This document shows positions 16,145-44,590 of a stretch of DNA of 51,395 bases, piece after piece; the stretch's first letter is position 1, and each line of letters begins with the position of its first letter. The notes beneath the pieces are model-generated. The model worked only from the letters and a program-made list of their open reading frames with translations. It did no database searches and was not told where the DNA came from. The stretch is from Limisphaerales bacterium (lineage in GTDB: Bacteria > Pseudomonadota > Alphaproteobacteria > Rhodobacterales > Rhodobacteraceae): the NCBI GenBank assembly GCA_044356825.1, contig JBIKVM010000001.1, forward strand, positions 1 to 51,395, written 5' to 3'. Made by a program: the position numbers and the translations under genes.

Positions 16145-16774
16145 CTATTGCAGGATGAACGAGGTGAAGTAGAGCCCCTCCACCCCTCCGAAACCTTCGA
16201 GGGCTTCGAGCTTGGCATTGATGGCGCCGCGCATCCGCTCGGCCAGCGCATCCCGCCCCGCCTTGCCCTCGATGTCCTCTTCGGTGAACTCGCTGATGAT
16301 TCCGAGGATCTCGGAGCGCAGTGAAAGCTGATGCGTGTCGACATTGGTGATGACCGTCTGATCATACTGGGTCGACACCCCGATTCCGACCTGGAGGAAC
16401 TTGCGCGAGTTGCGCAGGTTGGTCGTGAATGTGCCCGGGAACTCGTAATAGGAGGTCACGAAGGTCTCGACCTCGGGCACCTCCTTGACGTTGAGTTGCG
16501 GCGCGCCAGCCTCGCCCTCGGCGCCTTCGGCGGCCTCCTCGCCTTCGGCGGGGGCTTCCTCCTCGGCAGGGGGTTCAAGCTGGCCGCTCTCCATCAGCTT
16601 GCGCTCGATGATGCTCTCGATTTCTTCCGACGGCGTCGGCGCGGCGCGACCGAAGACGACGTAGCCCGCCCCGAGGCCTACGCCGACAAGGCCCAGCCCT
16701 GCCCCGACGAGGCCGAGAACCTTGATGAGGCCACCCTTCTTCTTCTTGCCATCGTCTGCGGGTTGATCCGGCAT
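16145..16774 (-). CDS. fliL: Flagellar basal-body-associated protein FliL, 209 aa
   Basis: Lys-rich N-terminus, one TM segment, and a FliL domain ending EGLYFTSFILQ. Sits directly upstream of fliM. Confidence 0.85.
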   Translation of the reverse strand: MPDQPADDGKKKKGGLIKVLGLVGAGLGLVGVGLGAGYVVFGRAAPTPSEEIESIIERKLMESGQLEPPAEEEAPAEGEEAAEGAEGEAGAPQLNVKEVPEVETFVTSYYEFPGTFTTNLRNSRKFLQVGIGVSTQYDQTVITNVDTHQLSLRSEILGIISEFTEEDIEGKAGRDALAERMRGAINAKLEALEGFGGVEGLYFTSFILQ

Positions 16775-24728: not shown

Positions 24729-25916
24729 CTAATAGGCCATGCCGGCCACACGACGGCCGAAGGCGGTTTCATCGCGCCGCAGACGCAATCCGTCGGAGGG
24801 CGCATCGACGATGATGTCAGTTGCGGTTATGACCCCCTCGGCATGCAGCACGAGCGCCCGCTGCATCACGTTCTCGAGTTCGCGCACGTTGCCCGGCCAG
24901 TCATGGGCCAGCAACAGCGCGACCGCATCCTCGCCGAGCATCGGCATTGGCGTGCCGGGCGGGCAATGCTTGCGCAAGAGCGCGGCCGCGATCGCCACGA
25001 TATCGTCGCGCCGCTCCGCGAGCGCGCGCGTCGCCAGCGGAAAGACGTTCAAGCGATAGAAGAGATCCTCGCGGAAGCGGTTCTGGCGGACTTCTTCGTG
25101 GATGTCGCGGTTCGTCGTCGCGACGATGCGGACATCGACCTTGATCTCCGCCTGGCCGCCAAGCGGGGTCACGGTGCGCTCCTGCAGCACGCGCAAGAGC
25201 TTCGATTGCAGCCCGAGCGGCATCTCGGAAATCTCGTCCAGCAGCAGCGTGCCCCCCTCGGCGGCGCGGAAGATCCCCTTGTTGGCAAGCGACGCGCCGG
25301 TGAACGCACCCTTCTCGTGGCCAAACAGCACGGCCTCGAGCATGTTCTCGGGGATCGCGGCACAGTTGATCGCGACAAAGGGGTTGCCCCGGCGGACCGA
25401 GCGCAGATGGACATAGCGCGCGAGCACTTCCTTGCCGGTCCCCGTCGGTCCGTTGACGAAGACCGTCACGTCCGATCGCGCAACGCGGTCTGCAAGTTCC
25501 ATCAGCCGCGTCGTCGAGGGATCGGCCGCGATCATGTTCGAGGTTTCGGCACACAGGACGTCCGCGGCATGGAGCAGCGCGAAATCCTGCGCGAGCGGCA
25601 GGCCGGCGCGCGCAGTCGGCAGGCCCATCCGGATTACCCGGCCGCCCAGCTCGGTTTCGCAGACAAGGGTCGCGGCAGACTCGTCGAGGATCACGACAAG
25701 ACGAGGCCGCAGTGGCCGAAGCCGCTCAGTCAGCGCGCGCAACCCGCCGGCCGCGGCAACTGCGGCGGCCCCGCATGCATAGGCTGCCCCTGGTTGCACG
25801 CCGGGATCTCGGCCAGGATCGGCCGAAACCACCGCCCGGACCTTGCGGCGGGAAATCGCCTCGGCGAGCCGTTCGGCTGCAGCGAACCCGTTTGCATCGA
25901 TCACGACGTCGGACAT
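24729..25916 (-). CDS. fleT: sigma54 enhancer-binding protein without a DNA-binding domain (FleT-like), 395 aa
   Basis: Internal ATG 25916 with GGGAG at 8-nt spacing. AAA+ core: GPTGTGKE, GAFTGA (HEKGAFTGA), VRELEN. About 130 aa of N-terminal domain. Only about 45 aa follow the AAA+ core, with no Fis-type HTH. It is the first gene of the fliEFGHIJ operon, as described for R. sphaeroides fleT. Confidence 0.8.
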   Translation of the reverse strand: MSDVVIDANGFAAAERLAEAISRRKVRAVVSADPGRDPGVQPGAAYACGAAAVAAAGGLRALTERLRPLRPRLVVILDESAATLVCETELGGRVIRMGLPTARAGLPLAQDFALLHAADVLCAETSNMIAADPSTTRLMELADRVARSDVTVFVNGPTGTGKEVLARYVHLRSVRRGNPFVAINCAAIPENMLEAVLFGHEKGAFTGASLANKGIFRAAEGGTLLLDEISEMPLGLQSKLLRVLQERTVTPLGGQAEIKVDVRIVATTNRDIHEEVRQNRFREDLFYRLNVFPLATRALAERRDDIVAIAAALLRKHCPPGTPMPMLGEDAVALLLAHDWPGNVRELENVMQRALVLHAEGVITATDIIVDAPSDGLRLRRDETAFGRRVAGMAY

Positions 25917-25946
25917 CTTGCGCACTCCCTTGCGTCTCAAAGGAAA

Positions 25947-25962
25947 GGCAAGAAGCGGGCCA
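25947..25962 (-). promoter_or_regulatory. sigma54 promoter of fleT-fliE operon: TGGCCC-gcttc-TTGCC
   Basis: Correct GG-N10-GC spacing. The predicted transcription start is about 20 nt upstream of ATG 25916. Confidence 0.55.
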
Positions 25963-25976
25963 ACCCCCGCAGGGCC

Positions 25977-25992
25977 TGTCGGAATGCCCCGA
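25977..25992. promoter_or_regulatory. Palindromic box TGTCGGAATGCCCCGA (12/16; left half perfect)
   Basis: Immediately upstream of the fleT sigma54 promoter. Confidence 0.35.
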
Positions 25993-26002
25993 TCAAAGCA
26001 CA

Positions 26003-26015
26003 CAAATATCTGACT
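26003..26015 (-). promoter_or_regulatory. IHF-like site AGTCAGATATTTG within a 33-nt AT-rich island (26004-26036)
   Basis: One mismatch to WATCARNNNNTTR, with an A/T tract on its 5' side. Lies between the upstream boxes and the fleT sigma54 promoter, centred about -73. This is the only strongly AT-rich stretch in the region. Confidence 0.35.
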
Positions 26016-26077
26016 TATATAAATTATTCAGGATTTGTCTGGACTGCGGAACAGCGCCCGGAACGGGCTTTGATCGG

Positions 26078-26093
26078 TGTCGGAAACACGTCA
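26078..26093. promoter_or_regulatory. Palindromic box TGTCGGAAACACGTCA (12/16)
   Basis: About 150 bp upstream of the fleT transcription start. Embedded in the GGTGT...ACACC inverted repeat. Confidence 0.35.
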
Positions 26094-26129
26094 CACCGAG
26101 CAGGCGATCCGATCGGCCAACCATGCGGG

Positions 26130-26145
26130 CGTCGGGAATCCGCCG
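26130..26145. promoter_or_regulatory. Palindromic box cGTCGGGAATCCGCCg (11/16)
   Basis: About 200 bp upstream of the fleT transcription start, just downstream of the fliL-like stop codon. Confidence 0.3.
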
Positions 26146-26149
26146 CCCG

Positions 26150-26773
26150 TCAGGTCAGCACGAAAGAGGTGATGATGACTTCCTCGATGTCGGGTTCGAG
26201 GCCCTCGGACACCAGCCAGTCATTCAAAAGCGTGCGGATCCGTTCGGTCAGGGCGCGCCGAGCTTCGACCGTGCGCAGATCCTCGGCGGCAACGTCGGCG
26301 AGTGTGTCCATGATCAGGCCACGTACGACGGCTTCGCGTTCCTGAAGGCGCAATATGACCCCTTCGGAAAACATTGGCGGCAGGAAAACGCTGACGGACA
26401 GTTCGAGACTGAAAAGACCCGAGCCGTCGCGGGCATTTCCGGCAAAAGCCGACGCGAAGCTGAAGTAGCGATAGGAGGGGGGAATGATCTGGCCTTGCTC
26501 GTCGACCTGGACGCGCTCTTCGCCCGTGGCCGTGGCTTCGGCGCCCGCGGGCACGGCTTCGCCCTGGGCGGGTGCCTCACCCTCGGCGGGTGCCGCCGTC
26601 GCTTCGGCGGCGGGCGCATCCGTGTCGGCGGGCGCGGTGGCCTCGAAGCGGTCGCGATAGGGCTGGAGGTGTTCGGCGCGCGGCCCGACTGCGGCGTGGC
26701 CGCCGATGAAGGCCGCAAGCACGATGAAACCCGGCAGGATATAGACGATCCCCTGGAGGAGAAGAGCCTTCAT
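26150..26773 (-). CDS. Second FliL-like protein, 207 aa
   Basis: Internal ATG 26773. N-terminal TM segment (LLLQGIVYILPGFIVLAAFIGG), Ala/Glu/Pro-rich linker, and a FliL-type C-terminal domain (LFSLELSVSVFL...LRTVEARRALTERIRTLLNDWL...VIITSFVLT). Confidence 0.6.
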   Translation of the reverse strand: MKALLLQGIVYILPGFIVLAAFIGGHAAVGPRAEHLQPYRDRFEATAPADTDAPAAEATAAPAEGEAPAQGEAVPAGAEATATGEERVQVDEQGQIIPPSYRYFSFASAFAGNARDGSGLFSLELSVSVFLPPMFSEGVILRLQEREAVVRGLIMDTLADVAAEDLRTVEARRALTERIRTLLNDWLVSEGLEPDIEEVIITSFVLT

Positions 26774-26893
26774 CCGACAGACCCCGCACGCTTGCCCGGG
26801 GTCGTCCCCGAGCGAAAAATGCACCCGAGGTCCGGATGGCACCCGCCACCGGACCTGCTGACGCCAGACGGCGCCCCCTGCATCGCGCCGTTG

Positions 26894-27199
26894 TCAGCCG
26901 CGCGAGATGTCCGCCTTCAGATAGGATCCGAAGCCCGACAGGACCTGCACATGCGCGCGCAGCCGCAACTCGATCCGGCGCACGTCTTCGCGCAGCGCCT
27001 CGAGCGACAGCCGGTCAACCCCCTCGGTCTCGGGCCGCACCGCCATCGTCTCGGCGAGCGCGCTCGTGACCGTCTGGAGATCGGATGTCGCCGACGTCAG
27101 GGCCTCGGCATCATGCAGACTGCCCGCCACCCGTCCAAGGGTGTCGCGCAGGGCATCGAGGCGTCCGTTCAGGTCGGTCGGCATCGCGTCGTGGTCCAT
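26894..27199 (-). CDS. Small helical protein, 101 aa, FlgN-like by position
   Basis: Immediately downstream of flgM, in the flgA-flgM-flgN order. Helical and Leu/Ala/Asp-rich. No diagnostic motif. Confidence 0.45.
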   Translation of the reverse strand: MDHDAMPTDLNGRLDALRDTLGRVAGSLHDAEALTSATSDLQTVTSALAETMAVRPETEGVDRLSLEALREDVRRIELRLRAHVQVLSGFGSYLKADISRG

Positions 27200-27209
27200 C
27201 TTCAGGCCC

Positions 27210-27509
27210 TCAACCCTTGAGTTGAAGGTAGCTTTCCATCAGCCGGTCGGCCACCCGATCGAGATCGATCGGATAGTTCCCCTTGCGGATGGCGTCCTTG
27301 ATCCGTCCAACGGCTTCGATGTCGATGGGCGGTTCGCTCTTCATTGCCGCCACGGTCGCCTTCGACTGCAAGTCGCTGGTCGGGGCCGCAGGTGCTGTCG
27401 AAGCGGCTTTCGCCACCTCGGCCGCAGCCTTGCGGTCAGCCAGTTCCTTGGCAATCGATGCGCCAGGGACGGACACTCTGTGTGCCGTATGCTTGATGTG
27501 ATCAACCAT
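27210..27509 (-). CDS. flgM: Anti-sigma-28 factor FlgM, 99 aa
   Basis: C-terminal FlgM signature: PIDIEAVGRIKDAIRKGNYPIDLDRVADRLMESYL. AAGGAGG at 5-nt spacing from the start. Confidence 0.8.
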   Translation of the reverse strand: MVDHIKHTAHRVSVPGASIAKELADRKAAAEVAKAASTAPAAPTSDLQSKATVAAMKSEPPIDIEAVGRIKDAIRKGNYPIDLDRVADRLMESYLQLKG

Positions 27510-27530
27510 GACACCCTCCTTACGCGATGG

Positions 27531-27558
27531 GAAACGACCGCAGACTAGTTCATGTTAG
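27531..27558 (-). promoter_or_regulatory. Candidate sigma28 promoter of flgM: CTAAC-N15-GTCGTTTC
   Basis: Minus strand reads CGCTAACATGAACTAGTCTGCGGTCGTTTCCCATCGCGTAAGGAGG. Overlaps the 3' end of flgA, as the class 3 flgM promoter does in enterics. Confidence 0.5.
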
Positions 27559-29131
27559 CGATGGGACGTATTTTTTCCGAGCCTTCGACGACGCCCTGGA
27601 TGATCTCGCCGGAAGAAACGTTCTCGACCTCGATGATGTCACCCAGTTGGCCGTTGCCGACGGCGCGGCCGGGTGTCACGATCTCGAAGCCGCCGATCGC
27701 ATTCACGATCATGAGCGGATTGCCCTCGCGCACGAGCCAGTCGTAATCGAGGTGCCGGGCGTGGAGCGCGCGCCCCTCACCGAGCGTCTGGGTCAGCGTG
27801 CGCCCGATCACGTCGGATGCGTTCGTGAACAGCCCGGTAGAGGCCTTCTGCGGCGCCGGGATCATCATAACATCGTCCTCGGTCAGAACCGCCCCCTTGC
27901 GCAGGCTGCGCCGGAGCGCCGCGACGACGACACCCGAGCTGGCCGCGTCCGCAGCCTTCTCGCCGGTGTTGGCCTCAGCGGCAGGGGCCGGCATCGCTTC
28001 GGCCGCCTCGGCCTCTAGAGCCGCAACCGCCGTTGCATCGGGCAAGGGTGAGGACAGGTTCGTCCGCACGAGCAGCGACCACTCGAAGGGCGTCGTGCAG
28101 CGCACCGTGACCATGCTCCAGTCGGTTCCGTTGCGCGGTTCTGCACCGAGGGGTTCGGAGCAGGGATAGAAGCGCCGGGTCGCGGGGATCACGGGCTCGC
28201 CACGCAGGCCGGCAGCCTGCAGGAGGTCGATCACCGCCGCTTCGACATGTGCGGCCGTGACATCGAAGGCCCCGGTTGCATCGGCGGCCGTTGCGGCGTC
28301 CTCGACGGTGCGCACATAGACGGCCCATTCGAGCGGTTCGGAGCAACGCACCTCGACCGTCCGCCAGTCCGAGCCGAAGCGCGGCGCGGCCTTGAGTTCG
28401 CTCGAGCAGGGAAAGAAGCGGCGCAGGCGCGACACGAGCGGGGTCGCGGCGATCCCCTCTTCGCTCAGCGCACGCCTGACCGCGGCCTCGATGTCGGTGG
28501 CGGTCGCGCGCGGTGCCGAGTCAAGCGCGGTTGTGCTCGCGGGGCCCCGGCGGGCAACGGTTCGGACATTGAGCGACCAGCGCGCCGGGGCGGGGCAACT
28601 GACGGCAACCGTCCGCCAATCACCCTCGATCCGCGGCGCGACATCGAGCGGTGCCGCACAGGGGTAGAAGACGCGCGACTGGTTCACGACCGGCACGGCA
28701 TCAAGCGCCGCCGCATCGAGTTTGGCCTGAACCGCCGCGACGATCTCTGCTGCATCAACCTGCCGGACGGGATCGGGGACTCCCGCGGCATCGGCCGGCA
28801 GCGCAGCGCCGCTGCGGACCATCACCGACCAGCGGACAGGCGCCGGGCAGGTGACGTTGACAGTGCGCCAGTCGTCGCCATTGCGCGGCGTGACCTCGAG
28901 TGGCGCGCCGCAAGGATTGAACTGGCGCCCGGGCGGAATCACGGGGTCGGCCTCGTAGCCCTGCTCCTGAAGGACGCGGCGGACGCGCGCAGCTACCTCG
29001 GCACCCGAGACGACCTGTGCCCCGGCCATCTGCTCGGCCAGGGTGGGGGGCGGATCCTGTTCGGGCGCCGACACCGCGGGCCCTGCCGCGAGACAGGCCA
29101 TGAGCGCGAGGACGAAGCGGCGGATCGCCAT
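27545..29131 (-). CDS. flgA: P-ring assembly chaperone FlgA, expanded to 528 aa with a fourfold-repeated N-terminal domain
   Basis: Internal ATG 29131 with a signal peptide (MAIRRFVLALMACLAAGPAVSA). C-terminal SAF/FlgA region: LRKGAVLTEDDV...VREGNPLMIV...GDIIEVENVSSGEIIQGVV. Preceded by four modules that match the FlgA N-terminal domain pattern (PC..PL...W..V.V.C....W...VR). Confidence 0.85.
   Translation of the reverse strand: MAIRRFVLALMACLAAGPAVSAPEQDPPPTLAEQMAGAQVVSGAEVAARVRRVLQEQGYEADPVIPPGRQFNPCGAPLEVTPRNGDDWRTVNVTCPAPVRWSVMVRSGAALPADAAGVPDPVRQVDAAEIVAAVQAKLDAAALDAVPVVNQSRVFYPCAAPLDVAPRIEGDWRTVAVSCPAPARWSLNVRTVARRGPASTTALDSAPRATATDIEAAVRRALSEEGIAATPLVSRLRRFFPCSSELKAAPRFGSDWRTVEVRCSEPLEWAVYVRTVEDAATAADATGAFDVTAAHVEAAVIDLLQAAGLRGEPVIPATRRFYPCSEPLGAEPRNGTDWSMVTVRCTTPFEWSLLVRTNLSSPLPDATAVAALEAEAAEAMPAPAAEANTGEKAADAASSGVVVAALRRSLRKGAVLTEDDVMMIPAPQKASTGLFTNASDVIGRTLTQTLGEGRALHARHLDYDWLVREGNPLMIVNAIGGFEIVTPGRAVGNGQLGDIIEVENVSSGEIIQGVVEGSEKIRPIANMN
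28061..29014 (-). repeat. Four tandem coding repeats of about 82-84 codons inside flgA
   Basis: Cys pairs at residues 74/95, 158/179, 242/263 and 324/345. Shared pattern: V..V...L...G....PV....R.F.PC..PL...PR.G.DWRTV.V.C..P..WS..VRT. Confidence 0.7.
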
Positions 29132-30279
29132 CAGCGCACCTCCATGAAGCGCGCCTTGGCGCCGGCCAACGCGGCGGTGTCGCGCGTGCGATCGATGGGT
29201 CGCAGCCGGACCGAGGAGTCCTCGATCCCGATGATCTCGAGGATCGTGTAGGGCGTCGAACTGCCCTCGGTATAGGCGAGGTGGTTGCGCGTGAGGCCGT
29301 GGCGCCGCCCGAACGGCAGGCTGAGGGTTCCGTCCCCGGCAGCCGCGAGCATCCCCACGAGCGGGCGGCACACGATGTCGCGAACCAGCGCATCGACATG
29401 CGCCTCGAGCCCCGCCGTCAACTCGGCAACGACCGTGGCGCGGTCTCGGCGGGAGATCGGGTTCATAAGCGCGAGCGTCCCCGTTCCGGGCAGACGGACA
29501 CTGCGGCGCAAGACGGCCTGCGCGCCCTCCTCGGTTCCTCCGGAGAACAGGCGCGACGCGATCTCGAGTTCGATCTCTGGGCCTTCGATCAGCCCCACTG
29601 CGGTGGATCCCGCGCGGATCTCTACCATGGTGTCAAAACCGAAACCGTTCGAGGCGACACCCGCGGCGAGCGGCCGCATCCCCGTCAGGGTTGCGTAATC
29701 GAAGGCGGGGTTGGCCGTGGCGCTCGACATCACCTCCTGAGCCGATGAGCCGACGCTCCCCGCGAAGTCGACCGAACGATGCGCGCCGAGCTGTTCCATC
29801 AGCGCGGCCGCGACGTCCTGCACCACGGGCTGAAGCCATGCGGGGGCGCGCGGATCGAGCACAAGTGACGGCCGGAACGCCATGATCGAGACGCGCACCT
29901 CGCGCGGGCAATCGGCAATCGGCTGGATCTCGCCCAGCAGCGCACGGACGCGGATCCGCGTTGCCTCGCCGACGCGCTCCTCGGAGAGGATCGAATAGTC
30001 AAGGATGCGCGATGCGGGCCGCACGACAAGCTGATCGGTCACGATCTCGCTGCGCGAAAGGGCGGTGAAGCCAGTGACCTCCGCTCCCCCGATCATGGCT
30101 GCCTGATAGAGCGCCTCTTCGAGCGCGCGCCGCCGCGTAGCCGATGCGGCACCTTGGACCGTGTCGACGGCCTGCCCCTCGGCCTCAACCGTCATCACCT
30201 GCGCCGCAGCCGGCAGGGCATGCCCCGCCGCGGCGATGACCAGCGCAAGCAGCGCGGCAGGGATGATGGGCCGGCTCAC
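29131..30279 (-). CDS. flgT: FlgT-like flagellar outer-ring (H-ring) assembly protein, 382 aa (GTG start)
   Basis: GTG 30279 with GAGGGA at 6-nt spacing. Signal peptide. The N-terminal pattern VEAEGQAV...ATRRRALEEALYQAAMIGGAEVTG is like the FlgT/LPP20-type N-domain. Positioned between flgP and flgA. Confidence 0.6.
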   Translation of the reverse strand: MSRPIIPAALLALVIAAAGHALPAAAQVMTVEAEGQAVDTVQGAASATRRRALEEALYQAAMIGGAEVTGFTALSRSEIVTDQLVVRPASRILDYSILSEERVGEATRIRVRALLGEIQPIADCPREVRVSIMAFRPSLVLDPRAPAWLQPVVQDVAAALMEQLGAHRSVDFAGSVGSSAQEVMSSATANPAFDYATLTGMRPLAAGVASNGFGFDTMVEIRAGSTAVGLIEGPEIELEIASRLFSGGTEEGAQAVLRRSVRLPGTGTLALMNPISRRDRATVVAELTAGLEAHVDALVRDIVCRPLVGMLAAAGDGTLSLPFGRRHGLTRNHLAYTEGSSTPYTILEIIGIEDSSVRLRPIDRTRDTAALAGAKARFMEVR

Positions 30280-30289
30280 GGAAAATCCC

Positions 30290-30826
30290 TCAGCCGGCGC
30301 GACGGGCAGCGCGCAAAAGCTGATCGACCATCTCGCGGTCGATCTCGAGCAGCACCTCGTAGGTATCGCTGCCCTTGGGTTCGATGCGCACGGTGCGTGC
30401 GCCCCGGATGGTGCCCGCGACAGACGCGCGCAACGTATCGCTCTGGACCACCGCATCGGCAATCGAGGTCTGGCTGTCGATGCGCAGCCCGTGAATCTTT
30501 TCGGTCAGCTCGCGCATCGCCTCGAGCCGCGCGGCGCGGATCGCCATCAGCCGGCGATGGGTCTGCGACTTGCCATGCTGGGCAGAGACAACCGCATAAC
30601 CAACTCCACTGATCGTGGGGACCGTGCGCGCCGCCGTGTCGTTCACGTCAAGCACCTGCTGCGTGCGCAGGAGGTCCTGCGTGGCCGAAGGTCCCTGATC
30701 GGACGCCCCCGCGAAGGGAAGACTCAACGACCCGGTGCAGCCCGAGACGGCCAGCCCGAGGCCGAGCGCTAGCACCGTCGGCAGGACAGCCGGACGGGCG
30801 CGGTGGATCGTGAATTCATGTGCCAA
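30290..30826 (-). CDS. flgP: FlgP (LPP20-family) flagellar lipoprotein, 178 aa (TTG start)
   Basis: TTG 30826 preceded by GAAGGAG at 7-nt spacing, downstream of the sigma54 promoter. Lipobox LAVSGC. LPP20-like core: GVGYAVVSAQHGKSQTHRRLMAIRAARLEAMRELTEKIHG. Confidence 0.7.
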   Translation of the reverse strand: MAHEFTIHRARPAVLPTVLALGLGLAVSGCTGSLSLPFAGASDQGPSATQDLLRTQQVLDVNDTAARTVPTISGVGYAVVSAQHGKSQTHRRLMAIRAARLEAMRELTEKIHGLRIDSQTSIADAVVQSDTLRASVAGTIRGARTVRIEPKGSDTYEVLLEIDREMVDQLLRAARRAG

Positions 30827-30861
30827 GGTGCCGCTCCTTCGCAAGGGTTGCAAAGGACGGG

Positions 30862-30877
30862 TGCACGAACCGTGCCA
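30862..30877 (-). promoter_or_regulatory. sigma54 promoter of flgP operon: TGGCAC-ggttc-GTGCA
   Basis: Correct spacing. The predicted transcription start is about 25 nt upstream of TTG 30826. Confidence 0.6.
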
Positions 30878-30918
30878 GACGGCCCGGACGAGGTTGCCTG
30901 AGGCCGCAACCATGCGGG

Positions 30919-30934
30919 TGGCACAGGTTTTGCT
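30919..30934 (+). promoter_or_regulatory. sigma54 promoter of flhA operon: TGGCAC-aggtt-TTGCT
   Basis: Full consensus match. Divergent from the flgP promoter 42 nt away. About 140-nt leader to ATG 31086. Confidence 0.65.
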
Positions 30935-31056
30935 TTCATGGATCGGAGAGATCTCGTCCAAGTGCGGAAGGCGCGGCAGAGATGGCAGCGATGGCAGGAA
31001 AAACCAGGGGGAACGGGTTCGGAACGGGCCACGGCATGACCCTTGGCCGAGGAACC

Positions 31057-31072
31057 CGGCGGGATTCCGACA
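31057..31072. promoter_or_regulatory. Palindromic box cGGCGGGATTCCGACA (13/16)
   Basis: Lies in the flhA leader, about 213 bp upstream of the flgP transcription start. The right half-site is perfect and is followed by CCGACAGTCGG. Confidence 0.4.
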
Positions 31073-31085
31073 GTCGGTGCCTGTC

Positions 31086-33212
31086 ATGGAACTGACACGC
31101 GGCCGGATGGTCCCAGGCGATCTGCGCGGCGCCCTCGGAAGCGCGATCCTTCCGATCGGCATCCTCGCCGTCGTCGCGATGATGGTGCTGCCGCTGCCGG
31201 TCATGCTGCTCGACATGTTCTTCGTCGTGAACATCCTCGTTTCGCTGCTCATCCTGCTCGTGGCGATGCACACCTATCGTCCGGTCGATTTCTCGTCCTT
31301 CCCCACGGTGCTCCTGATCGCGACGATCCTCAGGCTCGCGCTCAACGTGGCCTCGACACGCATCGTGCTGGCCGAGGGGCACACGGGCGATGATGCGGCC
31401 GGACAGGTCATCAAGTCGTTCGGCGAGTTCGTGATCGCAGGCAACTACGTGGTCGGGATCTTCGTCTTCGCGATCCTCGTCATCATCAACCTCATCGTCA
31501 TCACCAAGGGCGCGGGGCGCGTGTCCGAAGTTTCGGCGCGCTTCACGCTCGATGCGTTGCCCGGCAAGCAGATGGCGATCGACGCCGACCTCAACGCAGG
31601 GCTCCTGACGGCCGAGGAGGCGACGAAGCGCCGCCAGGAAGTCGCGCAAGAGGCGGACTTCTACGGCTCGATGGATGGTGCATCGAAATTCGTGAAGGGC
31701 GACGCGATCGCAGGCCTTCTCATCCTTGCCATCAACATCGTCGGCGGTCTCATCATCGGGACTGTACAGCATGGGCTGGGCATCGGCGAAGCGGCCGAGA
31801 TCTACATCCTGCTCTCGATCGGCGACGGCCTCGTCGCGCAGATCCCCTCGCTCCTGCTCTCGATCGCGACCGCGATCATCGTGACGCGCGTCTCCTCGAC
31901 CGAGGACATGGCCGAGCACATTGGAAAACAGGTAAATCTCTCGCGCGCCTGGATCCCTTCGGCGTTGGTGATGTTCATTCTCGGCGTGACGCCGGGGATG
32001 CCCAACCAGCTCTTCCTGACCTTCGCGGCGCTGGCGGCGGGGGCAGGCTATCTGGCCCGCCGAGCCGAAATCGCGCGCGCCGAGGAACCCGAGGAAGAAC
32101 CCGAGGCCGCCGCTGGTGAAGGCCCGGCGAAAGAGGCGATCACGCTCGAGGATGTCACCGACTATTCTCCGGTCTCGCTCCAGCTCGGCTATGGCCTCAT
32201 CTCGATGGTGGATGGCGACGAGGGCAGCCCCCTTGTCACCCGTATCACCGGGATCCGGCGCGAGGTGTCGCGCGCGCTCGGTTTCGTCGTGCCCGGCGTG
32301 CGCATCCGCGACGACCTCGGGCTCGAGCCCAACCAGTACCGCATCCGCATCGGCCAGACGATCGTCGGCGAGGATCGAGTCTTTCCCGACCGCAAGCTCG
32401 CGCTCGCGGGGGATCGGACGGCGGTCAGGATCGACGGGGTCGAGGTCAAGGATCCGTCGTTCGGAATGGACGCGACCTGGATCCGCCCGCAGCAGCAGGC
32501 CGAGGCCGAGGCGAACGACTATGTCGTGATCGAGCCCGAGTCGGTCCTTGCGACGCACCTCAGCCAGCTTCTCTACAAGCACGCGGCCGAACTCGTGGGG
32601 CAGGACGATGTGCAGGCGCTGGTCGACAACCTCGCCAAGAACAGCCCCAACCTCGTGCAATCGGTCGTGCCGAAACTCGTGCCGCTGCATGTGCTGACGG
32701 CGGTGCTGCGCGCGCTCCTGCACGAGCGGATCCCGATCGCGGACCTGCGGCGGATCCTCGAGGGGCTCGCGAACCTCTCGAACCGCAATGCCCCGCCGAC
32801 AGAGATGGCCGAGGCACTGCGGCCCGCACTTGTGCCGCTCCTCATCCAGCAGGTGGCGCCGCTCGGTAAGCCGCTGCCCGTCATCACCCTGACGCCCGAC
32901 CTCGAGCAGCTCCTGCTGCGGACCCTGCGCCAGTCGAGCGAGGGCGAGCTCGTCCTCGAGGGCGAGCTTGCCCAGCAGCTCGTGACCTCGATCAACGAGA
33001 CATCCGAGCGGATGTCGGCCGAGGGAAAGCCCGGCGTCACCGTCGTCGCACCCCAGATCCGGCGCGCCTTCGCCGCCTTCCTGCGCGGCCACATGCCCGA
33101 CGCCATCGTGCTGAGCTATACTGAACTGCCCGAAAACCGCCGTGTCGAGGTCGCCGCGACCATCGGCGGGGCGGGTGCGCTGCCCCGCGAAACCGGCCCC
33201 AAGACCAGATGA
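31086..33212 (+). CDS. flhA: Flagellar export apparatus protein FlhA, 708 aa
   Basis: Internal ATG 31086. Conserved FlhA N-terminus (LPLPVMLLDMFFVVNILVSLLILLVAM, FPTVLLIATILRLALNVASTRIVL), FHIPEP region, and C-terminal cytoplasmic domain. Confidence 0.95.
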   Translation: MELTRGRMVPGDLRGALGSAILPIGILAVVAMMVLPLPVMLLDMFFVVNILVSLLILLVAMHTYRPVDFSSFPTVLLIATILRLALNVASTRIVLAEGHTGDDAAGQVIKSFGEFVIAGNYVVGIFVFAILVIINLIVITKGAGRVSEVSARFTLDALPGKQMAIDADLNAGLLTAEEATKRRQEVAQEADFYGSMDGASKFVKGDAIAGLLILAINIVGGLIIGTVQHGLGIGEAAEIYILLSIGDGLVAQIPSLLLSIATAIIVTRVSSTEDMAEHIGKQVNLSRAWIPSALVMFILGVTPGMPNQLFLTFAALAAGAGYLARRAEIARAEEPEEEPEAAAGEGPAKEAITLEDVTDYSPVSLQLGYGLISMVDGDEGSPLVTRITGIRREVSRALGFVVPGVRIRDDLGLEPNQYRIRIGQTIVGEDRVFPDRKLALAGDRTAVRIDGVEVKDPSFGMDATWIRPQQQAEAEANDYVVIEPESVLATHLSQLLYKHAAELVGQDDVQALVDNLAKNSPNLVQSVVPKLVPLHVLTAVLRALLHERIPIADLRRILEGLANLSNRNAPPTEMAEALRPALVPLLIQQVAPLGKPLPVITLTPDLEQLLLRTLRQSSEGELVLEGELAQQLVTSINETSERMSAEGKPGVTVVAPQIRRAFAAFLRGHMPDAIVLSYTELPENRRVEVAATIGGAGALPRETGPKTR

Positions 33213-33223: not shown

Positions 33224-34600
33224 ATGCCCACGCTCACAGTCCTTGCCCCCGACAGCTCTCTCGCGATGGACGAGATCGCGCGCCAGCTTGGCGACAACGC
33301 CTTCATCCTCTCGACCTCGAAACGCGACGGCATGATCGAGATCAAGGCCACCAACGACCCGATCCCCCCCGGCCCGCGCGAGACGAAGGCGCGATCGGCA
33401 TTCGCAGCGGCGCTGGCGGCGCACGGGGCGAATGAGGAGGTGATGGTCCTTCAGCGGCCGCGCGAGGCACATGAGGCGCAGGAGAACGCCGAAACGGCTG
33501 CTCCCACCGAGGCCAGACCCGAACCCGAGCGTCGCTCGGCCACCGTCGTTCGCATGCCCCAGCCGGCGACCGAGGCAGCCCGCGCCCCGCGCGCCCCAGC
33601 GTTCCGCCCCTCATTCCAGCCCGTCGCGCCGGCGGTGCCCCTGCCCGCGTCTGTCGAAGCCCTGACGGCGCACCGCAGCACGGCCGAGGTCCGCATCCCC
33701 GCCCCGCCGGCCCACGCGCCCGCCGAAGACGTGGTGGAGACTCTCTCGCGCCTGCACGGCGCGCTGTCGGCATTGCGCGAAAGCATCGCGCGCACCGATC
33801 TCGCAGTCACTGCAACGGCCGCTGCGCCGCAACCCGCGGCGCCGACCTCGCAGGCGCGCATCGTCGCCGCAGGCTTCGAGGCATCGCTCGTGTCCGAGAT
33901 CGTTGGGCAGACCGCGCGTACAGCAGAAGCCGCCGAGGCGGGCTTTGCCGAGGCACTGGCCGGGCGCATCATCGCCGCCGCGCCCGAGTCGATGCTTGCC
34001 CATGACGCAGTGCTGGTGCTCGGAGCGTCGGGATCGGGACGCTCGACCCTCGCGGCAAAGCTCGCGGCGGTCCTGCGCGACCTGCACCCGGACCGCCGCT
34101 GCCGCCTGGTCGAGATCTGCCCGCGCGGCATGACGGCGGGCGAATACCTGCGGGGATGTGCGCGGATGCTCAACAGCGCGCAGATGCTCGATATCGGGTT
34201 CGTTCTCTGGCACGAAGAGGATCTGGCCAGCCTGCCCCCGCTTGAGGCCGGCACCACCCACATCATCGACATGCCCTCGGATGGGGCGACATGCGCGCGC
34301 ATCCTCGCGGGCATGGGCGGGGCGGTTCCGGCCGACGCGCCGCGCCTGCTGGCACTTCCGGCCGGGGCCACGACCGGGATGATCGACCGCCAGATGGCGC
34401 GCCCGGAATGTGCCGGGGCGGTGGTCGCGCTGACCAAGCTTGACGAATGCGACGTGGCCGCACCCGAGCTTTCGACCCTCGCGCGGCATGACCTGCGGAT
34501 CGGCTGGCTGTCGGGGACGCGGGCACTGGTGGGCAATCTCTCGCCGGCGACGGCGCAGGTCATGCGCGACTACATCGCGGGCTATATCGAGCAGGCCTGA
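33224..34600 (+). CDS. flhF: FlhF-like SRP-type GTPase homologue with degenerate G motifs, 458 aa
   Basis: FlhF-type N-terminus (MDEIARQLGDNAFILSTSKRDGMIEIKA). G1 is GASGSGRST rather than GxxGxGKT. G3 is DMPS rather than DTAG. G4 TKLDE is intact. Confidence 0.75.
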   Translation: MPTLTVLAPDSSLAMDEIARQLGDNAFILSTSKRDGMIEIKATNDPIPPGPRETKARSAFAAALAAHGANEEVMVLQRPREAHEAQENAETAAPTEARPEPERRSATVVRMPQPATEAARAPRAPAFRPSFQPVAPAVPLPASVEALTAHRSTAEVRIPAPPAHAPAEDVVETLSRLHGALSALRESIARTDLAVTATAAAPQPAAPTSQARIVAAGFEASLVSEIVGQTARTAEAAEAGFAEALAGRIIAAAPESMLAHDAVLVLGASGSGRSTLAAKLAAVLRDLHPDRRCRLVEICPRGMTAGEYLRGCARMLNSAQMLDIGFVLWHEEDLASLPPLEAGTTHIIDMPSDGATCARILAGMGGAVPADAPRLLALPAGATTGMIDRQMARPECAGAVVALTKLDECDVAAPELSTLARHDLRIGWLSGTRALVGNLSPATAQVMRDYIAGYIEQA

Positions 34601-34628
34601 AGGGCCGCAAAGCGGAAAGGCAAGGGGG

Positions 34629-36344
34629 ATGCCCCAGTCGATCACCATAGCCAGCGGCAAGGGCGGCGTCGGCAAGACCTGCATCGCGGTCAACCTCGCG
34701 CTCACGCTCGCGGCGATGGGGCTGCGGGTGAAGTTGCTCGATGCCGATTTCGGGCTGGCCAATTCGCATGTGCTCATGGGGATCAACAGCACGAAGTCGA
34801 TCCGCGACGTCATCACCGGAGAGCGCTCGCTGGTCGAAATCGCCGAGCGGGTCGCGCCGCGGCTCGACTTGCTCGCGGGCGGCAGCGCGCTGTCGGAGTT
34901 GCTCAATGTCGATCCGACGGTCCGCTATCGGCTGATCCGCAACTTCGACGCGATGGCCGACGATACCGACGTGCTGCTCATCGATGCGCCGGCGGGAGCG
35001 TCGGACAATGCGCTGTCCTTCGTCGTCGCGGCGGACCGGGTCGTGGTCGTGATTGTGCCTGAACCGACAAGCTTCATGGACGCCTATGCCCTGATCAAGA
35101 CCGCAAACCTCGATCATGGGCTCGAGCGGTTCTCGATCGTCGTCAACATGGCCGCCAACGAGACCGAGGCGGCGCGCCATTTCGAGAAGTTCCGCGCGAT
35201 CGCGATGCGCTTTCTGGCGGTCGAATTGACCCATGTCGGGCATGTGCCGCTCTCGAACGCGCTCAGCCGGTCGGTTGTGGCCCTGAAGCCCATCATGCAG
35301 GGCGGCGGCAATCCGGCATCGCCCGAGGGGGCGGCGTTCCGCAAGCTTGCCAACGGCATCCTGCACGCGCCCGTGAACCCGCCCCGCGGCATCCGTTTCT
35401 TCGAAGGAACCGACGGCGCACCCGCTTTGCCGCGGCTCGTACCGGAGCCTGCGCAGGCGGCCGCACCCCAAGTGGCGGCGGCTGCCGATCCGGCGCCCGA
35501 AGTGCCGGGAGCCGCGCAGGGCGACACCGTGACGGGCATCCTCGTGCGGCTCCATGATGCGCTTGCCGGGTTGCGCCAGTCGATGGCAACCGAACCTGCG
35601 GCAGCTGCGGCCGCGCTTGAAACCAATCGGATCCTTGCCTCGGGCTTCGACCCCGACCTTGCGCGGACCCTCGCGCGGGTCGATGCCGGGGCGGCTCCGG
35701 CCCCCGCATTCGCACGCGCGCTTGCCACCCAACTTGCGCACGAGGCCCCCCTCGATCTGCTCGGCGCACCCGCAGTCATGGTGCTTGGGCCGTCGGGTGC
35801 CGGGCGGACGACGGTTGCGGCCAAGCTCGCGGCCTTCATGTCGGCGGCGATGCCGGGCCGGCGGGCGGCGCTCGTGAACGTGGTGGCGCGTGACGGCGGC
35901 GATGACGGCCGGCTGCGGATGCTCGCCACGCGTATTGGCGCGGCGGCGGATTTCACGGTCTGGACCGAGGACGATTCCGAGACTCTGCCGCTCGGTTCCG
36001 ACATCACCCATATCCTCGACATGCCGCCCGGCCCGAAGGACTGCGTGCGACTTGCCGGGCGCTTCGCGGCCGCGTTCGGTCCGGCGGCGGTGCTGCCGCT
36101 GCTGGTGCTGCCGGGCGGGTCGAGTGCCTCGCTCGTTTCGCGCCAGCTTGCCCGGATCGATCCCTCGCGTGGCGCAGTCATTCTCTCGAAACTCGACGAG
36201 TGTCCGGCCGATCCGGGCGAACTTCTGGCGCTCGCGCAGGCGGGGGCGCGGGTCGGGTGGCTGTCGCAGGGGCGGGCGGCTGGGCTTGGCATCGTGCCCG
36301 TGACGCCCGCCCTCATGCACGATCACATTGCAGGTGCATCATGA
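34629..36344 (+). CDS. flhG: FlhG/FleN MinD-type ATPase fused in frame to a second FlhF-like NG domain, 571 aa
   Basis: ATG 34629 with AAGGGGG upstream. Residues 1-260 are FleN-like: deviant Walker A SGKGGVGKT, LLDADFGLAN, EPTSFMDAYALIK. A Pro/Ala linker follows. Residues about 300-571 are paralogous to the C-terminal part of the preceding FlhF: VLGPSGAGRTT, HILDMPPGP, SKLDEC. Confidence 0.8.
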   Translation: MPQSITIASGKGGVGKTCIAVNLALTLAAMGLRVKLLDADFGLANSHVLMGINSTKSIRDVITGERSLVEIAERVAPRLDLLAGGSALSELLNVDPTVRYRLIRNFDAMADDTDVLLIDAPAGASDNALSFVVAADRVVVVIVPEPTSFMDAYALIKTANLDHGLERFSIVVNMAANETEAARHFEKFRAIAMRFLAVELTHVGHVPLSNALSRSVVALKPIMQGGGNPASPEGAAFRKLANGILHAPVNPPRGIRFFEGTDGAPALPRLVPEPAQAAAPQVAAAADPAPEVPGAAQGDTVTGILVRLHDALAGLRQSMATEPAAAAAALETNRILASGFDPDLARTLARVDAGAAPAPAFARALATQLAHEAPLDLLGAPAVMVLGPSGAGRTTVAAKLAAFMSAAMPGRRAALVNVVARDGGDDGRLRMLATRIGAAADFTVWTEDDSETLPLGSDITHILDMPPGPKDCVRLAGRFAAAFGPAAVLPLLVLPGGSSASLVSRQLARIDPSRGAVILSKLDECPADPGELLALAQAGARVGWLSQGRAAGLGIVPVTPALMHDHIAGAS

Positions 36345-41552: not shown

Positions 41553-42368
41553 ATGTCCTATTCGGTTGCGGGCAAAGCCATCATCGTCACCGGCGCGGCA
41601 CGCGGGATTGGCCTTGCGCTCGCGCGGCATTTCGTCGACCGCGGCGCACGCGTCATGTTCGCCGATGCCGATGAGGCGGCGCTGTTGCACGAGGTCGGCG
41701 AGGACGCCCGCGCCGAGGGGCAGGTCCGTCATTTCGCCGGCGATCTGCGCGCGAAACTCGATGTCGCGAACCTCGTCTCCGCGACGATCGATGCCTTCGA
41801 CCGGATCGACGTGCTCGTGAACGCCTCGCGCCATGTCGCGATTTCAGACCCGCTCGGGATCGAGCGCGACGCTGTCGAGGACATGATCGGCCTCAATCTG
41901 ATGTCGAGCCTGCGACTGTCGCAGGCCGTGGCGCGCCGGATGATCGTGCAGTCTGGCCGCGAGGGGGGCGAGGATGCGACGACACCAGCGGGGTCGATCG
42001 TGAACATCTCGTCGATCGCGGCGCGGCGCGCGCAACCCGAACTGATGGCCTATTCGATCGCCTGCGCGGCCATCGACCAGATGACCCGCTCCATGGCTGT
42101 CGCCCTTGCGCCGCGGCGCATCCGGGTGAACGCCGTCGCCTTCGGCAGCGTCATGAGCGCCTCGCTCCAGGGTAGCCTGAAGGGCCATGCGGAGAAGCGC
42201 GCCGAGATCGTGCGCCACACGCCGCTCGGTCGCATCGCGGCACCCGACGAGTTGGCCGAGGCGGTTCAGTTCCTTGCCTCGGATGCCTCGGCGTTCGTCA
42301 CCGGTCAGGTGCTGACGGTGGATGGGGGGCGCACCCTCATTGATCCGGTGTGCCTGCCTGCCCACTGA
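41553..42368 (+). CDS. Short-chain dehydrogenase/reductase, 271 aa
   Basis: TGAARGIG cofactor motif. The SDR catalytic region includes YSIACAAI, a Tyr-x3-Ala variant of the YxxxK motif. Confidence 0.85.
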   Translation: MSYSVAGKAIIVTGAARGIGLALARHFVDRGARVMFADADEAALLHEVGEDARAEGQVRHFAGDLRAKLDVANLVSATIDAFDRIDVLVNASRHVAISDPLGIERDAVEDMIGLNLMSSLRLSQAVARRMIVQSGREGGEDATTPAGSIVNISSIAARRAQPELMAYSIACAAIDQMTRSMAVALAPRRIRVNAVAFGSVMSASLQGSLKGHAEKRAEIVRHTPLGRIAAPDELAEAVQFLASDASAFVTGQVLTVDGGRTLIDPVCLPAH

Positions 42369-43287
42369 CGGCGCCGGCGCGTGACCCCGCGCGGCCCGCG
42401 CCGGTGCTGTTGACAAAGACGAGCCCCACCACCACGAGAGCCCCCGCCCCGATCACCTCAGGCCCGACCGGATCGCCCAGAACCGCCCAGCCCAGCGCTA
42501 CCGCAAGGATGGGCGTGAGCAGGCTGAAGGCCGCGACGCTCGAGGCCGGATAGCGTGCCAGCAGGCGGAACCACATCACGAAGCCCGCCGCCGCAACCAC
42601 AACCGACTGATAGCCGAGCGCGGCCATCGCCCCCGGGCCAAGATCGCGCAGCGGCTCCCCGGCGATGATCGCGGCAAGCCCGAGGAAGGGGATCGAACCG
42701 CTCAGCATCCAGAAGAGCTGCACCTCGGCCGACATGCCGCCCGCCCCTGCCCGCCGCGCAAGAAACGTCAGCCCCGCCCAGCCGAGTGCCGCCGCCACCG
42801 CCAGAAGATCGCCCGCGAGGCTGCCGGGCACCGCGCTCCCGGGCTTTCCGGCCAGCGCGAGTGCCATGCCCGCGAAGGCCAGAGCCAGCCCGGCGGCCCG
42901 CCGCGGGGTGATCTTCTCGGCCGGAAGGGCGACATGGGCGATCAGGGCGAACCAGACGGGCATGGAATAGAGCATGATCGTCGCGCGCGGCACGGTCGTG
43001 CGGTCGAGCGCGAGGAAGAGGCAGAGGAACTCAGCCGCGAAACCCGCGCCGAGGCCAAAGGCCAGCATCCCCATGCCCGGGGGCGGCGCGATCCGCCCGC
43101 CACGGGCCACGATCCACAGCCCGACAAGAGCGGCGGCGAGGATCGATCGGATCGTCGCGGCGAAGGCAGGCTCGAAACCCTCGATTGCGAAGCTGATCGC
43201 GATCTGGTTCGTCGCGAAGAGCACTGCCAGCCCGCCGAGCCCCGCCGCGCCGGCGCCGTCGATCCGATCTCTCCGACCCGCCGCCAT
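42337..43287 (-). CDS. DMT-superfamily (EamA-like) transporter, 316 aa
   Basis: Internal ATG 43287. About ten hydrophobic helices in two similar halves. The 3' end overlaps the convergent SDR gene by 32 nt. Confidence 0.75.
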   Translation of the reverse strand: MAAGRRDRIDGAGAAGLGGLAVLFATNQIAISFAIEGFEPAFAATIRSILAAALVGLWIVARGGRIAPPPGMGMLAFGLGAGFAAEFLCLFLALDRTTVPRATIMLYSMPVWFALIAHVALPAEKITPRRAAGLALAFAGMALALAGKPGSAVPGSLAGDLLAVAAALGWAGLTFLARRAGAGGMSAEVQLFWMLSGSIPFLGLAAIIAGEPLRDLGPGAMAALGYQSVVVAAAGFVMWFRLLARYPASSVAAFSLLTPILAVALGWAVLGDPVGPEVIGAGALVVVGLVFVNSTGAGRAGSRAGAVSGQAGTPDQ

Positions 43288-43444
43288 GGCATCCCCGCGA
43301 GATTGCTTGTGAGCCTTCGGGCCGGGCGGGGGCGATGTCAAGGCGGGGGGCTTGACCCGAGGGGGGCGATGCAGGCCAATAGTGGGGGTGATTCCGCTTG
43401 GTCGGAAGGCTCGCCATGGGTGCGCGCGCGCACGGGAGGACTGG

Positions 43445-43867
43445 ATGTACGACAAGACACAGGGCGGGACGGGCAAACCGTCGGTGCTTGCGGCGGACCT
43501 CGTCGTGACAGGTGTCATCGCAACGGAGGGCGCGCTTGAGATCAACGGGCGTGTCGAGGGCGAAGTGGCGGCCGATGCGCTCATCGTCGGGCGTGGCGGG
43601 ACGATCGCGGGCAAGGTCCGGGCCGGCCGCGCCGACATTCACGGCATGCTCCAGGGTGATCTGGTGTGTAGCGCGCTCGTGCTGCGGTCGACAAGCCGGC
43701 TGCGCGCCGACATGACCTGCGCCTCGCTCACGGTCGAGACGGGCGCCGAGGTCGAGGGCAGCCTGCGCCGCCCCGCCCCCCCGGAACCGCCCGCCCCGAC
43801 AGCCGAGGCGGGCATCATTGCAGCCGAGAGCGACCTTGCAGGCGGCAGCGCGGATTCCGAGGGTTAG
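43445..43867 (+). CDS. Bactofilin-family protein, 140 aa
   Basis: Internal ATG 43445. Beta-helical repeat pattern (VVTGVIATEGALEINGRVEGEVAADALIVGRGGTIAGKVRAGRADIHGMLQGDL) followed by a Pro-rich tail. Confidence 0.8.
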   Translation: MYDKTQGGTGKPSVLAADLVVTGVIATEGALEINGRVEGEVAADALIVGRGGTIAGKVRAGRADIHGMLQGDLVCSALVLRSTSRLRADMTCASLTVETGAEVEGSLRRPAPPEPPAPTAEAGIIAAESDLAGGSADSEG

Positions 43868-43870
43868 ACG

Positions 43871-44386
43871 TCAGTCGAGCGAGACCTTGACGTCGATGCG
43901 GTCGCCGACGCGATATCGGCTGGTCGTTTCGGTGTGGCCCTCAAGGCCATTCCAGCTGTAGTGCACGAGCCATCCGCCGACCTCGCGGCTTTCGCGCGCC
44001 TCGAACACCGTCTCGCAGACGCGCGACGTGCGGTACCCGGTGACGACCTGCCGCGTCTGGCGGCTGGCCGCATCAGCACCCATGATGGCACCAAGAACCG
44101 TCATCGCGTCCTTGCCTGATCCGTTGCCGAACTGGTTGCCGATCGCCCCCCCGATCAGCGCGCCGGCAAGCGTGTCGCCGGTGCCGCCGCCCCGGACGGT
44201 GCCATAGACGGGCTCTTCCACATCACGGCAGCGGCGCACCGGCTCTTCAGCGCGGGTGGTGATGTAGACGGGTTCGACCGCCGTCACGCGGGCGCTGACG
44301 GTATAGCTGCCGGCTGTGGCGCTGGTCGCAGCAAGGCCGAGGGTCAGGGCGACGAGGAGGCGGCGGGAGTTTCGGATCGCGGTCAT
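43871..44386 (-). CDS. Glycine-zipper (17-kDa antigen/SlyB-like) outer-membrane protein, 171 aa
   Basis: Internal ATG 44386. Signal peptide. Glycine zipper: GDTLAGALIGGAIGNQFGNGSGKDAMTVLGAIMGA. Confidence 0.65.
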   Translation of the reverse strand: MTAIRNSRRLLVALTLGLAATSATAGSYTVSARVTAVEPVYITTRAEEPVRRCRDVEEPVYGTVRGGGTGDTLAGALIGGAIGNQFGNGSGKDAMTVLGAIMGADAASRQTRQVVTGYRTSRVCETVFEARESREVGGWLVHYSWNGLEGHTETTSRYRVGDRIDVKVSLD

Positions 44387-44543: not shown

Positions 44544-44590
44544 CTGCGTCTGGAACCATGGTCGGTCGATGTTGTCCGGCGGAGGGTGCC

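Follow-up and report, generated by a model that had tools for sequence, protein, structure and literature searches.

FlgA of an uncultured Gemmobacter relative probably carries four tandem copies of its N-terminal domain

The flagellar gene flgA lies at 27545..29131 (-) of a 51,395-nucleotide stretch of metagenomic DNA, contig JBIKVM010000001.1, which is referred to here as the window. The gene belongs to a Fla1-type flagellar cluster, i.e., one that is Rhodobacter/Cereibacter-like and gamma-proteobacterial in type, of an uncultured Gemmobacter relative. Its product has 528 amino acids (aa), followed by a stop codon. We consider it probable, at roughly 0.8, that the open reading frame (ORF) is an intact flgA encoding, in order, a leader peptide, four tandem copies of the N-terminal domain D1, a low-complexity tether of about 40 residues, and one canonical D2-D3 region. 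The four-D1 FlgA is a known protein in a new arrangement, and its occurrence, as far as found, is limited to a few uncultured relatives of Gemmobacter. A full-text literature search returned nothing on amplified FlgA N-domains, and no earlier description was found.

The C-terminal part of the protein is that of an ordinary FlgA. Residues 401–528 (27548..27931 (-)) are assigned to D2-D3, i.e., the SAF domain and the ChapFlgA β domain, by profile and structure matches. ChapFlgA (PF13144) matches residues 401–522 at 77.5 bits (cutoff 23.8), and the region also matches SAF (PF08666; 36.8 bits, cutoff 21) and TIGR03170 flgA_cterm (92.5 bits, cutoff 54.65). A phmmer search matches it to Thermotoga maritima FlgA (3frn), and its identity to orthologues is 83%. 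The original prediction, made from the sequence alone, called the gene flgA with a single normal SAF/C-terminal region, and the three profile matches above cutoff bear this out. Preceding D2-D3 is an Ala/Pro/Glu-rich linker, residues 361–400 (27932..28051 (-)), in which A, P, E, D, T, S, and G make up 0.85 of the residues. The length of this linker varies among orthologues, and its identity to them is 35%.

At the N-terminal end, the ATG of the 528-aa form is the credible start, because a typical leader, MAIRRFVLALMACLAAGPAVSA, follows it directly and the orthologues (525–536 aa) start at the equivalent position. The longest ORF in this frame begins further upstream, at a GTG, and has 608 aa. 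The stop codon of the upstream flgT-like ORF, TGA, runs into this ATG (TGATG), a hint that flgA is translationally coupled to that gene. By inspection, residues 1–22 (29066..29131 (-)) are a putative Sec-type signal peptide, with a basic n-region, a hydrophobic core, and an AxA site. Leaders of the same kind, though poorly conserved (27% identity), are found in the orthologues. Cleavage after AVSA22, a site chosen by inspection, would leave a mature protein of 506 aa, in which case the predicted length of about 506 aa is correct. A lipoprotein reading of Cys13, in the string LMAC, was ruled out: the Cys is not conserved among orthologues, and the h-region is too short.

Between leader and tether lie four repeats of about 73 aa, R1 to R4, which align without gaps at periods of 84, 84, and 82 residues. 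R1 covers residues 38–110 (28802..29020 (-); Cys74/Cys95), R2 residues 122–194 (28550..28768 (-); Cys158/Cys179), R3 residues 206–278 (28298..28516 (-); Cys242/Cys263), and R4, the copy adjoining the C-terminal region, residues 288–360 (28052..28270 (-); Cys324/Cys345). With Cys13, these pairs account for all the Cys of FlgA. There are also two Trp in each repeat, at 88/101, 172/185, 256/269, and 338/351. Pairwise identity between the copies is 44–51% (BLASTP E 1e-20 to 5e-23), and 20 columns are invariant across the four, including P-C, P-R, D-W, the second Cys, and the second Trp. The four tandem N-terminal modules of the original prediction are thus present, with the Cys where it had placed them. 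Searched by tblastn against the whole window, R4 finds its three sister copies only (E 2e-12 to 2e-18), everything else being at E > 1. The four linkers and the 15-residue lead-in consist to 73–100% of Ala, Pro, Glu, Asp, Thr, Ser, and Gly.

At the DNA level, the copies are 52–57% identical, the longest exact match between two copies is 8–11 nucleotides (nt), and third codon positions match in 32–44%. The low DNA identity, the third-position mismatch, and the lack of any exact match longer than 11 nt exclude a recent duplication or an assembly artefact. Divergence of the copies, and hence an origin neither recent nor due to assembly, had been predicted; the DNA comparison and the finding of the protein in independent assemblies (see below) agree with it.

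What the repeated module is was approached with a profile built from 14 repeat sequences, which was searched against 1.84 billion representative proteins (E ≤ 0.001) and gave 166 matches. Four matched stretches are seen in one cluster only, the window protein's own. Among the other multi-stretch matches, P0008 and P0132 were set aside as unrelated repetitive proteins, and P0016 and P0134, with two stretches, as ordinary FlgAs the single D1 of which had been split by HMMER. The remaining matches listed have one stretch each, mostly near residues 25–100 of proteins of about 230–290 aa, and some are shorter fragments. Ten such single-stretch proteins were tested, and all ten have ChapFlgA and SAF domains, with the matched stretch N-terminal to both. 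In the single-copy domains, both Cys are found in 143/143, and the two Trp positions hold Trp in 116/143 and 132/143. The repeats are 42–51% identical to the best single-copy D1s, which is about equal to the distance between the repeats. Since a single N-terminal copy is matched in ordinary-length proteins with ChapFlgA and SAF, the module is, on sequence comparison, the N-terminal domain of a large FlgA subfamily.

Weaker evidence connects the repeat with the enteric D1 than with the N-domain of this subfamily. A profile of 102 single-copy relatives was aligned by hhalign, over the full length, with a profile of enteric FlgA (E 6e-16). The alignment is colinear, 36–253 versus 22–217, from the first mature residue to the C-terminus, and it brings the Cys pair and the first Trp into register with E. 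coli C57 and C80 (mature C36 and C59). In Salmonella FlgA, the C36–C59 disulfide is present in both crystal structures (PMC4895218). PF17656 (ChapFlgA_N) is matched by 14 of 70 related D1 segments (E ≤ 0.1, best 3e-4), and no other family is matched by more than one. Like D1, the module comes straight after the signal peptide, and MAFFT places the single D1 of canonical relatives on R4. The original prediction equated the repeats with the FlgA N-domain, and it is upheld by the profile match to the single N-terminus of canonical FlgAs and by the full-length alignment onto the enteric D1. The single-copy relatives carry, relative to enteric FlgA, an insertion of about 26–30 residues between D1 and D2. 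A D1 that was already tethered and autonomous may have been easier to amplify.

Structure prediction was done with AlphaFold2 (AF2). The full-length model has a mean predicted local distance difference test score (pLDDT) of 83.6 and a predicted template modelling score (pTM) of 0.48, the repeats being predicted confidently (pLDDT about 88–95 in R1) and the linkers poorly so (block means of 51–70 in residues 361–400). For each repeat, the prediction is a helix and then four to five strands. The model fits an arrangement of the repeats as beads on a string without fixed arrangement. Modelled alone, from a 70-sequence alignment, R2 gives a confident single domain (pLDDT 93.2, pTM 0.82) of one helix and five to six strands; R3 is defined by the sequence alignment and the AF2 model. 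A helix and an antiparallel sheet agree with the published description of D1 (PMC4895218). The top three Foldseek matches of the full model are the FlgA structures 3vjp, 3tee, and 3frn (E about 1e-8), in alignments of 237–244 columns. Judged from its length, this span would fit R4 (73), a gap for the 40-residue linker, and D2-D3 (128).

How widespread is the four-copy form? A full-length search of a 5.8-billion-protein collection, in which only the 8000 candidates sharing most words were scored, returned the family itself; the Ala-rich linkers may be crowding the candidate list in this search. The search gave seven clusters at 90% identity, of 525–536 aa and 64–66% identical to the window protein, all with four repeats, and all seven keep every repeat Cys and Trp. 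The carriers with genus-identifying names are all metagenome-assembled genomes (MAGs) of Gemmobacter sp. (Paracoccaceae, Rhodobacterales), and two members are labelled Pseudomonadota bacterium. Two GTDB Gemmobacter MAGs carry flgA in identical synteny. The four-copy protein is present in NCBI, JGI, ENA, and Logan assemblies. Neither the full-length nor the repeat-profile search turned up a form with two or three copies. A scan of genome contigs, made with very specific peptide patterns, gave just the two Gemmobacter MAGs and is silent on more distant multi-D1 FlgAs. Such proteins, with very different D1 sequences, are possible in other phyla, since the repeat profile detects only 166 representative clusters.

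A neighbour-joining tree was made from the repeats and the single-copy D1s. In 100% of its bootstraps, R2, R3, and R4 each form a group with their own orthologues, but at 71 columns the alignment is too short for the order of duplication or the monophyly of the four repeat classes. Because the repeat positions group by orthologue, the four-copy state predates the divergence of the carrier genomes.

Selection was gauged by the ratio of nonsynonymous to synonymous substitution rates (dN/dS), calculated by the Nei–Gojobori method; the values are approximate, because dS is near saturation in the window-to-MAG pairs. Over the four repeats, dN/dS is 0.19–0.30. There is a gradient along the protein: R1, the least constrained copy, has values of 0.29–0.59, R2 and R3 0.19–0.39, R4 0.07–0.16, and D2-D3 0.09–0.15. 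Identity between orthologues runs in parallel, with 54% in R1, 67% in R2, 68% in R3, and 77% in R4. For three of the four linkers it is 18–36%, and for linker 3 it is 58%. By these comparisons, the repeat region is translated and constrained, and all four copies are under purifying selection, with R4 as constrained as D2-D3 and the distal copies more relaxed. Selection on the Cys/Trp/Pro framework, which the original prediction had argued for, agrees with the dN/dS of the repeats and with linkers that are far less conserved than the domains.

The mechanism that we find most likely, and put forward tentatively, is as follows. By analogy with Salmonella, FlgA would be exported to the periplasm via Sec, its four Cys pairs would form disulfides like C36–C59, and D2-D3 would bind FlgI and chaperone P-ring polymerisation. 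FlgA of Salmonella binds FlgI through D3 and requires D3 to move towards D1, between an open and a closed state (PMC4895218). R4 would keep the ancestral role of D1, that of the domain closing onto D3 in the open/closed cycle. Repeats 1–3 would then be a flexible, disulfide-stabilised, multivalent arm, offering reach or avidity for D1's normal partner in ring assembly and not a new activity. An unlikely variant, though one with larger consequences, makes the four-D1 array a multivalent scaffold instead of a one-to-one chaperone, each D1 engaging an FlgI subunit or another basal-body or cell-wall partner. If so, one FlgA would nucleate or template several neighbouring P-ring subunits, or would stay tethered across the periplasm until ring closure, and the clade would be a natural experiment on what D1, the least understood FlgA domain, binds.

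The arm formed by repeats 1–3 has its main rival in the proposal that these repeats are a tolerated, largely functionless spacer and that the protein works like a single-D1 FlgA. We give this about the same low credence as the arm. In Salmonella, motility does not depend on the D1 disulfide (PMC4895218), and the closest single-D1 relatives have flgA in the same flgP-flgT-flgA-flgM context; for both reasons, the extra copies may add little. The four-copy architecture is also confined to one small clade, and constraint falls away from the C-terminal region, from R4 to R1, in dN/dS (0.07–0.16 versus 0.29–0.59) and in identity (77% versus 54%). A mere spacer, however, is hard to square with seven clusters that all keep exactly four copies and every repeat Cys and Trp, with a dN/dS well below 1 in every repeat, with linkers that diverge freely while the domains do not, and with searches that found no two- or three-copy form. 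A different proposal concerns not the function but the identity of the repeat. The module might be some other small periplasmic domain, not a D1 homologue, gained at the N-terminus by a FlgA lineage of the Rhodobacterales and amplified afterwards. Here belong the results that weigh against equating the repeat with the enteric D1. The PF17656 matches fall short of the gathering score: R1 alone matches, at 17.1 bits versus 27 (E 0.007), and repeats 2–4 give no match. Repeat profiles of four and of 70 sequences retrieve no FlgA, including that of Salmonella, from PDB sequences, a profile-to-sequence search by HMMER being too insensitive for the link between repeat and enteric FlgA. With D1 alone, hhalign gives weak values, P 0.0045 versus E. 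coli FlgA and 0.05 versus a narrow enteric profile, the set behind which is too uniform (effective number of sequences, Neff, 1.9). Lastly, the single-repeat model, compared with the PDB by Foldseek, has no FlgA structure among its best 50 matches, T. maritima 3FRN included, and nothing at E < 1; the top matches, PTB/PH-like and at E > 1, were not accepted as a fold assignment. Modelling, which the original prediction had proposed for confirming four copies of the D1 fold, thus delivered four confident repeat domains, but no retrieval of a FlgA structure by the single repeat. Even so, an unrelated domain seems improbable. The full-length profile alignment is colinear through D3 with Cys-Trp-Cys in register, the D1-only runs have the same register, and PF17656 is the sole family to recur among the related segments. 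The position directly behind the signal peptide and the predicted order of helix and then antiparallel sheet also fit the published D1. D1 is, moreover, the most divergent domain between the solved FlgA structures, differing by 2.8 Å in root-mean-square deviation (PMC4895218); this divergence and the small size of the domain mitigate the Foldseek miss, but do not explain it away.

Two further proposals would remove the repeats from FlgA altogether. The original prediction had itself named, as what would undo it, two genes in place of one, with a start near residue 400. An in-frame ATG does occur at codon 380, and on one 21.8-kb ENA contig, from a related organism, the gene has been called as two proteins, of 272 and 230 aa (P0170, P0171). 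The product of an internal start at M380, however, would begin with an acidic, Ala/Pro-rich stretch, lacks a signal peptide, and so could not reach the periplasm. M380 is not conserved and lies in a variable, gapped linker, and in independent assemblies purifying selection acts on an uninterrupted frame throughout the repeats. In addition, the start that appears to be translationally coupled to flgT is that of the 528-aa form, and the only leader peptide of FlgA is at residue 1. On these grounds, the internal start was ruled out. The break between P0170 and P0171 falls between R3 and R4, not at residues 380–400, and the two match P0005 on either side of it; it is most likely a frameshift, an assembly error, or a gene-calling split, and could be a natural pseudogene. 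We therefore give a two-gene arrangement, or an internal start near residue 380–400, very little credence. Even less can be said for an artefact of assembly or collapse. Apart from the metagenomic origin of the contig, nothing specific speaks for one. The divergence of the copies in DNA, which share no exact match of more than 11 nt, makes it barely conceivable, as does the recovery of the four-copy protein from the assemblies of four sources and from two GTDB MAGs.

With the four-D1 FlgA as the preferred reading, its meaning can be stated briefly. The retention of D1 in four tethered copies under purifying selection speaks for D1 as a functional unit in its own right, more than a structural cap. 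Internal domain amplification is shown to be a route by which factors of periplasmic flagellar assembly can evolve. For the question of what D1 binds, the four-D1 lineage also provides a ready-made truncation series. In practical terms, the impact is limited: the carriers are few, uncultured Gemmobacter genomes, and single-copy relatives have the same gene context.

The neighbours of flgA are flagellar as well. Directly upstream is the flgT-like gene, the longest ORF of which extends over 29131..30462 (-) and matches FlgT_N (PF16548) at 30.5 bits (cutoff 28.8). Its start is probably a GTG before the signal-like stretch RPIIPAALLALVIAAAG, and its position is conserved in the related loci L001, L002, L004, and L005. 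Next comes a gene for a flgP-like lipoprotein (longest ORF 30290..31273 (-)), which matches LPP20 (PF02169; E 2e-5) at 25.4 bits, just below the cutoff of 25.9. Its start is probably internal, before the lipobox LAVSGC, and the orthologous position is conserved in the related loci. Directly downstream of flgA is flgM, encoding the anti-sigma-28 factor (27210..27509 (-); PF04316, 36.2 bits). The order flgA-flgM is common to E. coli and all related loci. A 101-aa ORF without a Pfam match is flgN-like by position, which gives the order flgA-flgM-flgN as in E. coli.

The original prediction connected the extension of FlgA with FlgT and FlgP. The genes for both are indeed directly upstream, but the connection is not supported. 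Three single-D1 relatives, P0009 (258 aa), P0011 (280 aa), and P0216 (239 aa), share the flgP-flgT-flgA-flgM order, and a divergent flhA lies upstream in the two single-D1 contigs that reach that far. Since relatives with one D1 share this synteny, having FlgT and FlgP does not explain the extension.

The cluster in the window includes motA, motB, fliD, fliS, flhB, fliR, fliM, fliL, fliI, fliG, fliF, and fliE. The rest comprises two sigma-54 activators, a FliL-family gene, the flgN-like ORF, flgM, flgA, the flgT-like and flgP-like genes, flhA, a MinD/FlhG-like gene, fliA, and rpoN. The genes flgB to flgL, including flgH and flgI, are outside the window. When the conserved block at 24729-33212 is compared with L001 and L002, FlgA (64% identity) and the flgN-like ORF (58%) are the fastest evolving. 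The slower genes are those for FlhA (92%), FlgM (85%), the sigma-54 activator (82%), FlgP (76–85%), and FlgT (71–74%).

Several other genes of the cluster deserve mention. It has two FliL-family genes, at 26150-26842 (-) and 16145-16774 (-). The former, near flgA-flgM, encodes 230 aa, with a long Ala/Pro/Glu-rich segment before the FliL domain (residues 133–228), and is 56–70% identical to its Gemmobacter MAG counterparts; the other FliL (209 aa) adjoins fliM. MotB (3180-4418 (+)) is long, at 412 aa, with about 235 residues between the plug (22–70) and the OmpA domain (306–404), and is thus another periplasmic flagellar protein of the cluster with an extended linker. A small Lcl_C-domain protein (PF07603, 72 bits) at 1726-2256 (-) adjoins motA, and a protein of the same family adjoins motA in the locus of a single-D1 relative (L005 7016-7519 (-)). 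Fla1-type clusters may thus have in it a conserved but uncharacterised gene beside those of the stator. In the position expected for flhF, between flhA and the MinD/FlhG-like gene, is an ORF without a Pfam match (33224-34600 (+)). The next ORF, at 34440-36344 (+) and listed with 634 aa, contains a ParA/MinD domain (66–307) and a second, weak P-loop/SRP54-like match at about 446–479, and it overlaps the fliA ORF; the gene boundaries around 33224-36344 need proper calling. The flagellar cluster ends at about 41 kb. The unrelated genes that follow, at 41553-51374 and including 43352-43867 (+), encode an SDR reductase, a bactofilin, a response-regulator-like protein, a glyoxalase, a P-type cation ATPase, an aldehyde dehydrogenase, and a phosphodiesterase.

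Among the closest known systems are the single-D1, Fla1-type FlgAs of Paracoccaceae and relatives (P0009, P0011, P0216). They share with the window protein the D1 sequence type, D2-D3, the long D1-D2 linker, and the flhA/flgP/flgT/flgA/flgM/flgN-like synteny, and they differ in having one D1, not four. P0009 and P0016 also have in common with it the C-terminal motif EKIRPIANxx. CpaB/RcpC of Tad pili (PDB 9GZR) resembles the protein in the periplasmic C-terminal architecture of SAF and β-clip (Foldseek E 6.6e-4), and TIGR03177 (CpaB/RcpC) matches the FlgA C-terminal region at E 1e-6, below its cutoff. CpaB/RcpC, however, is part of another machine and lacks D1, whereas the window gene is in a flagellar cluster and has far better FlgA scores.

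A structurally characterised counterpart is the FlgA of Salmonella and E. coli (PDB 3TEE, open, and 3VJP, closed; Matsunami et al. 2016, PMC4895218), which supplies the top Foldseek matches of the full model and is about 14–22% identical to the window FlgA. The likenesses are the Sec leader, putative here, a D1 with a Cys pair, predicted here as helix and antiparallel sheet, the SAF-like D2, and the flgA-flgM-flgN order. To these may be added, by homology of D2-D3, a role as periplasmic P-ring chaperone and a D3 that is a β domain and would bind FlgI. The enteric protein has one D1, with strand β4 running straight from D1 to D2, whereas here there are four D1 and a flexible linker of about 40 aa before D2. 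T. maritima FlgA (3FRN), another top Foldseek match and alike in the C-terminal region, is the sole solved FlgA with an extra N-terminal domain, D0 (residues 17–84), besides D1-D3 (PMC4895218). This gives N-terminal elaboration of FlgA a precedent, with a single extra domain where the window protein has three.

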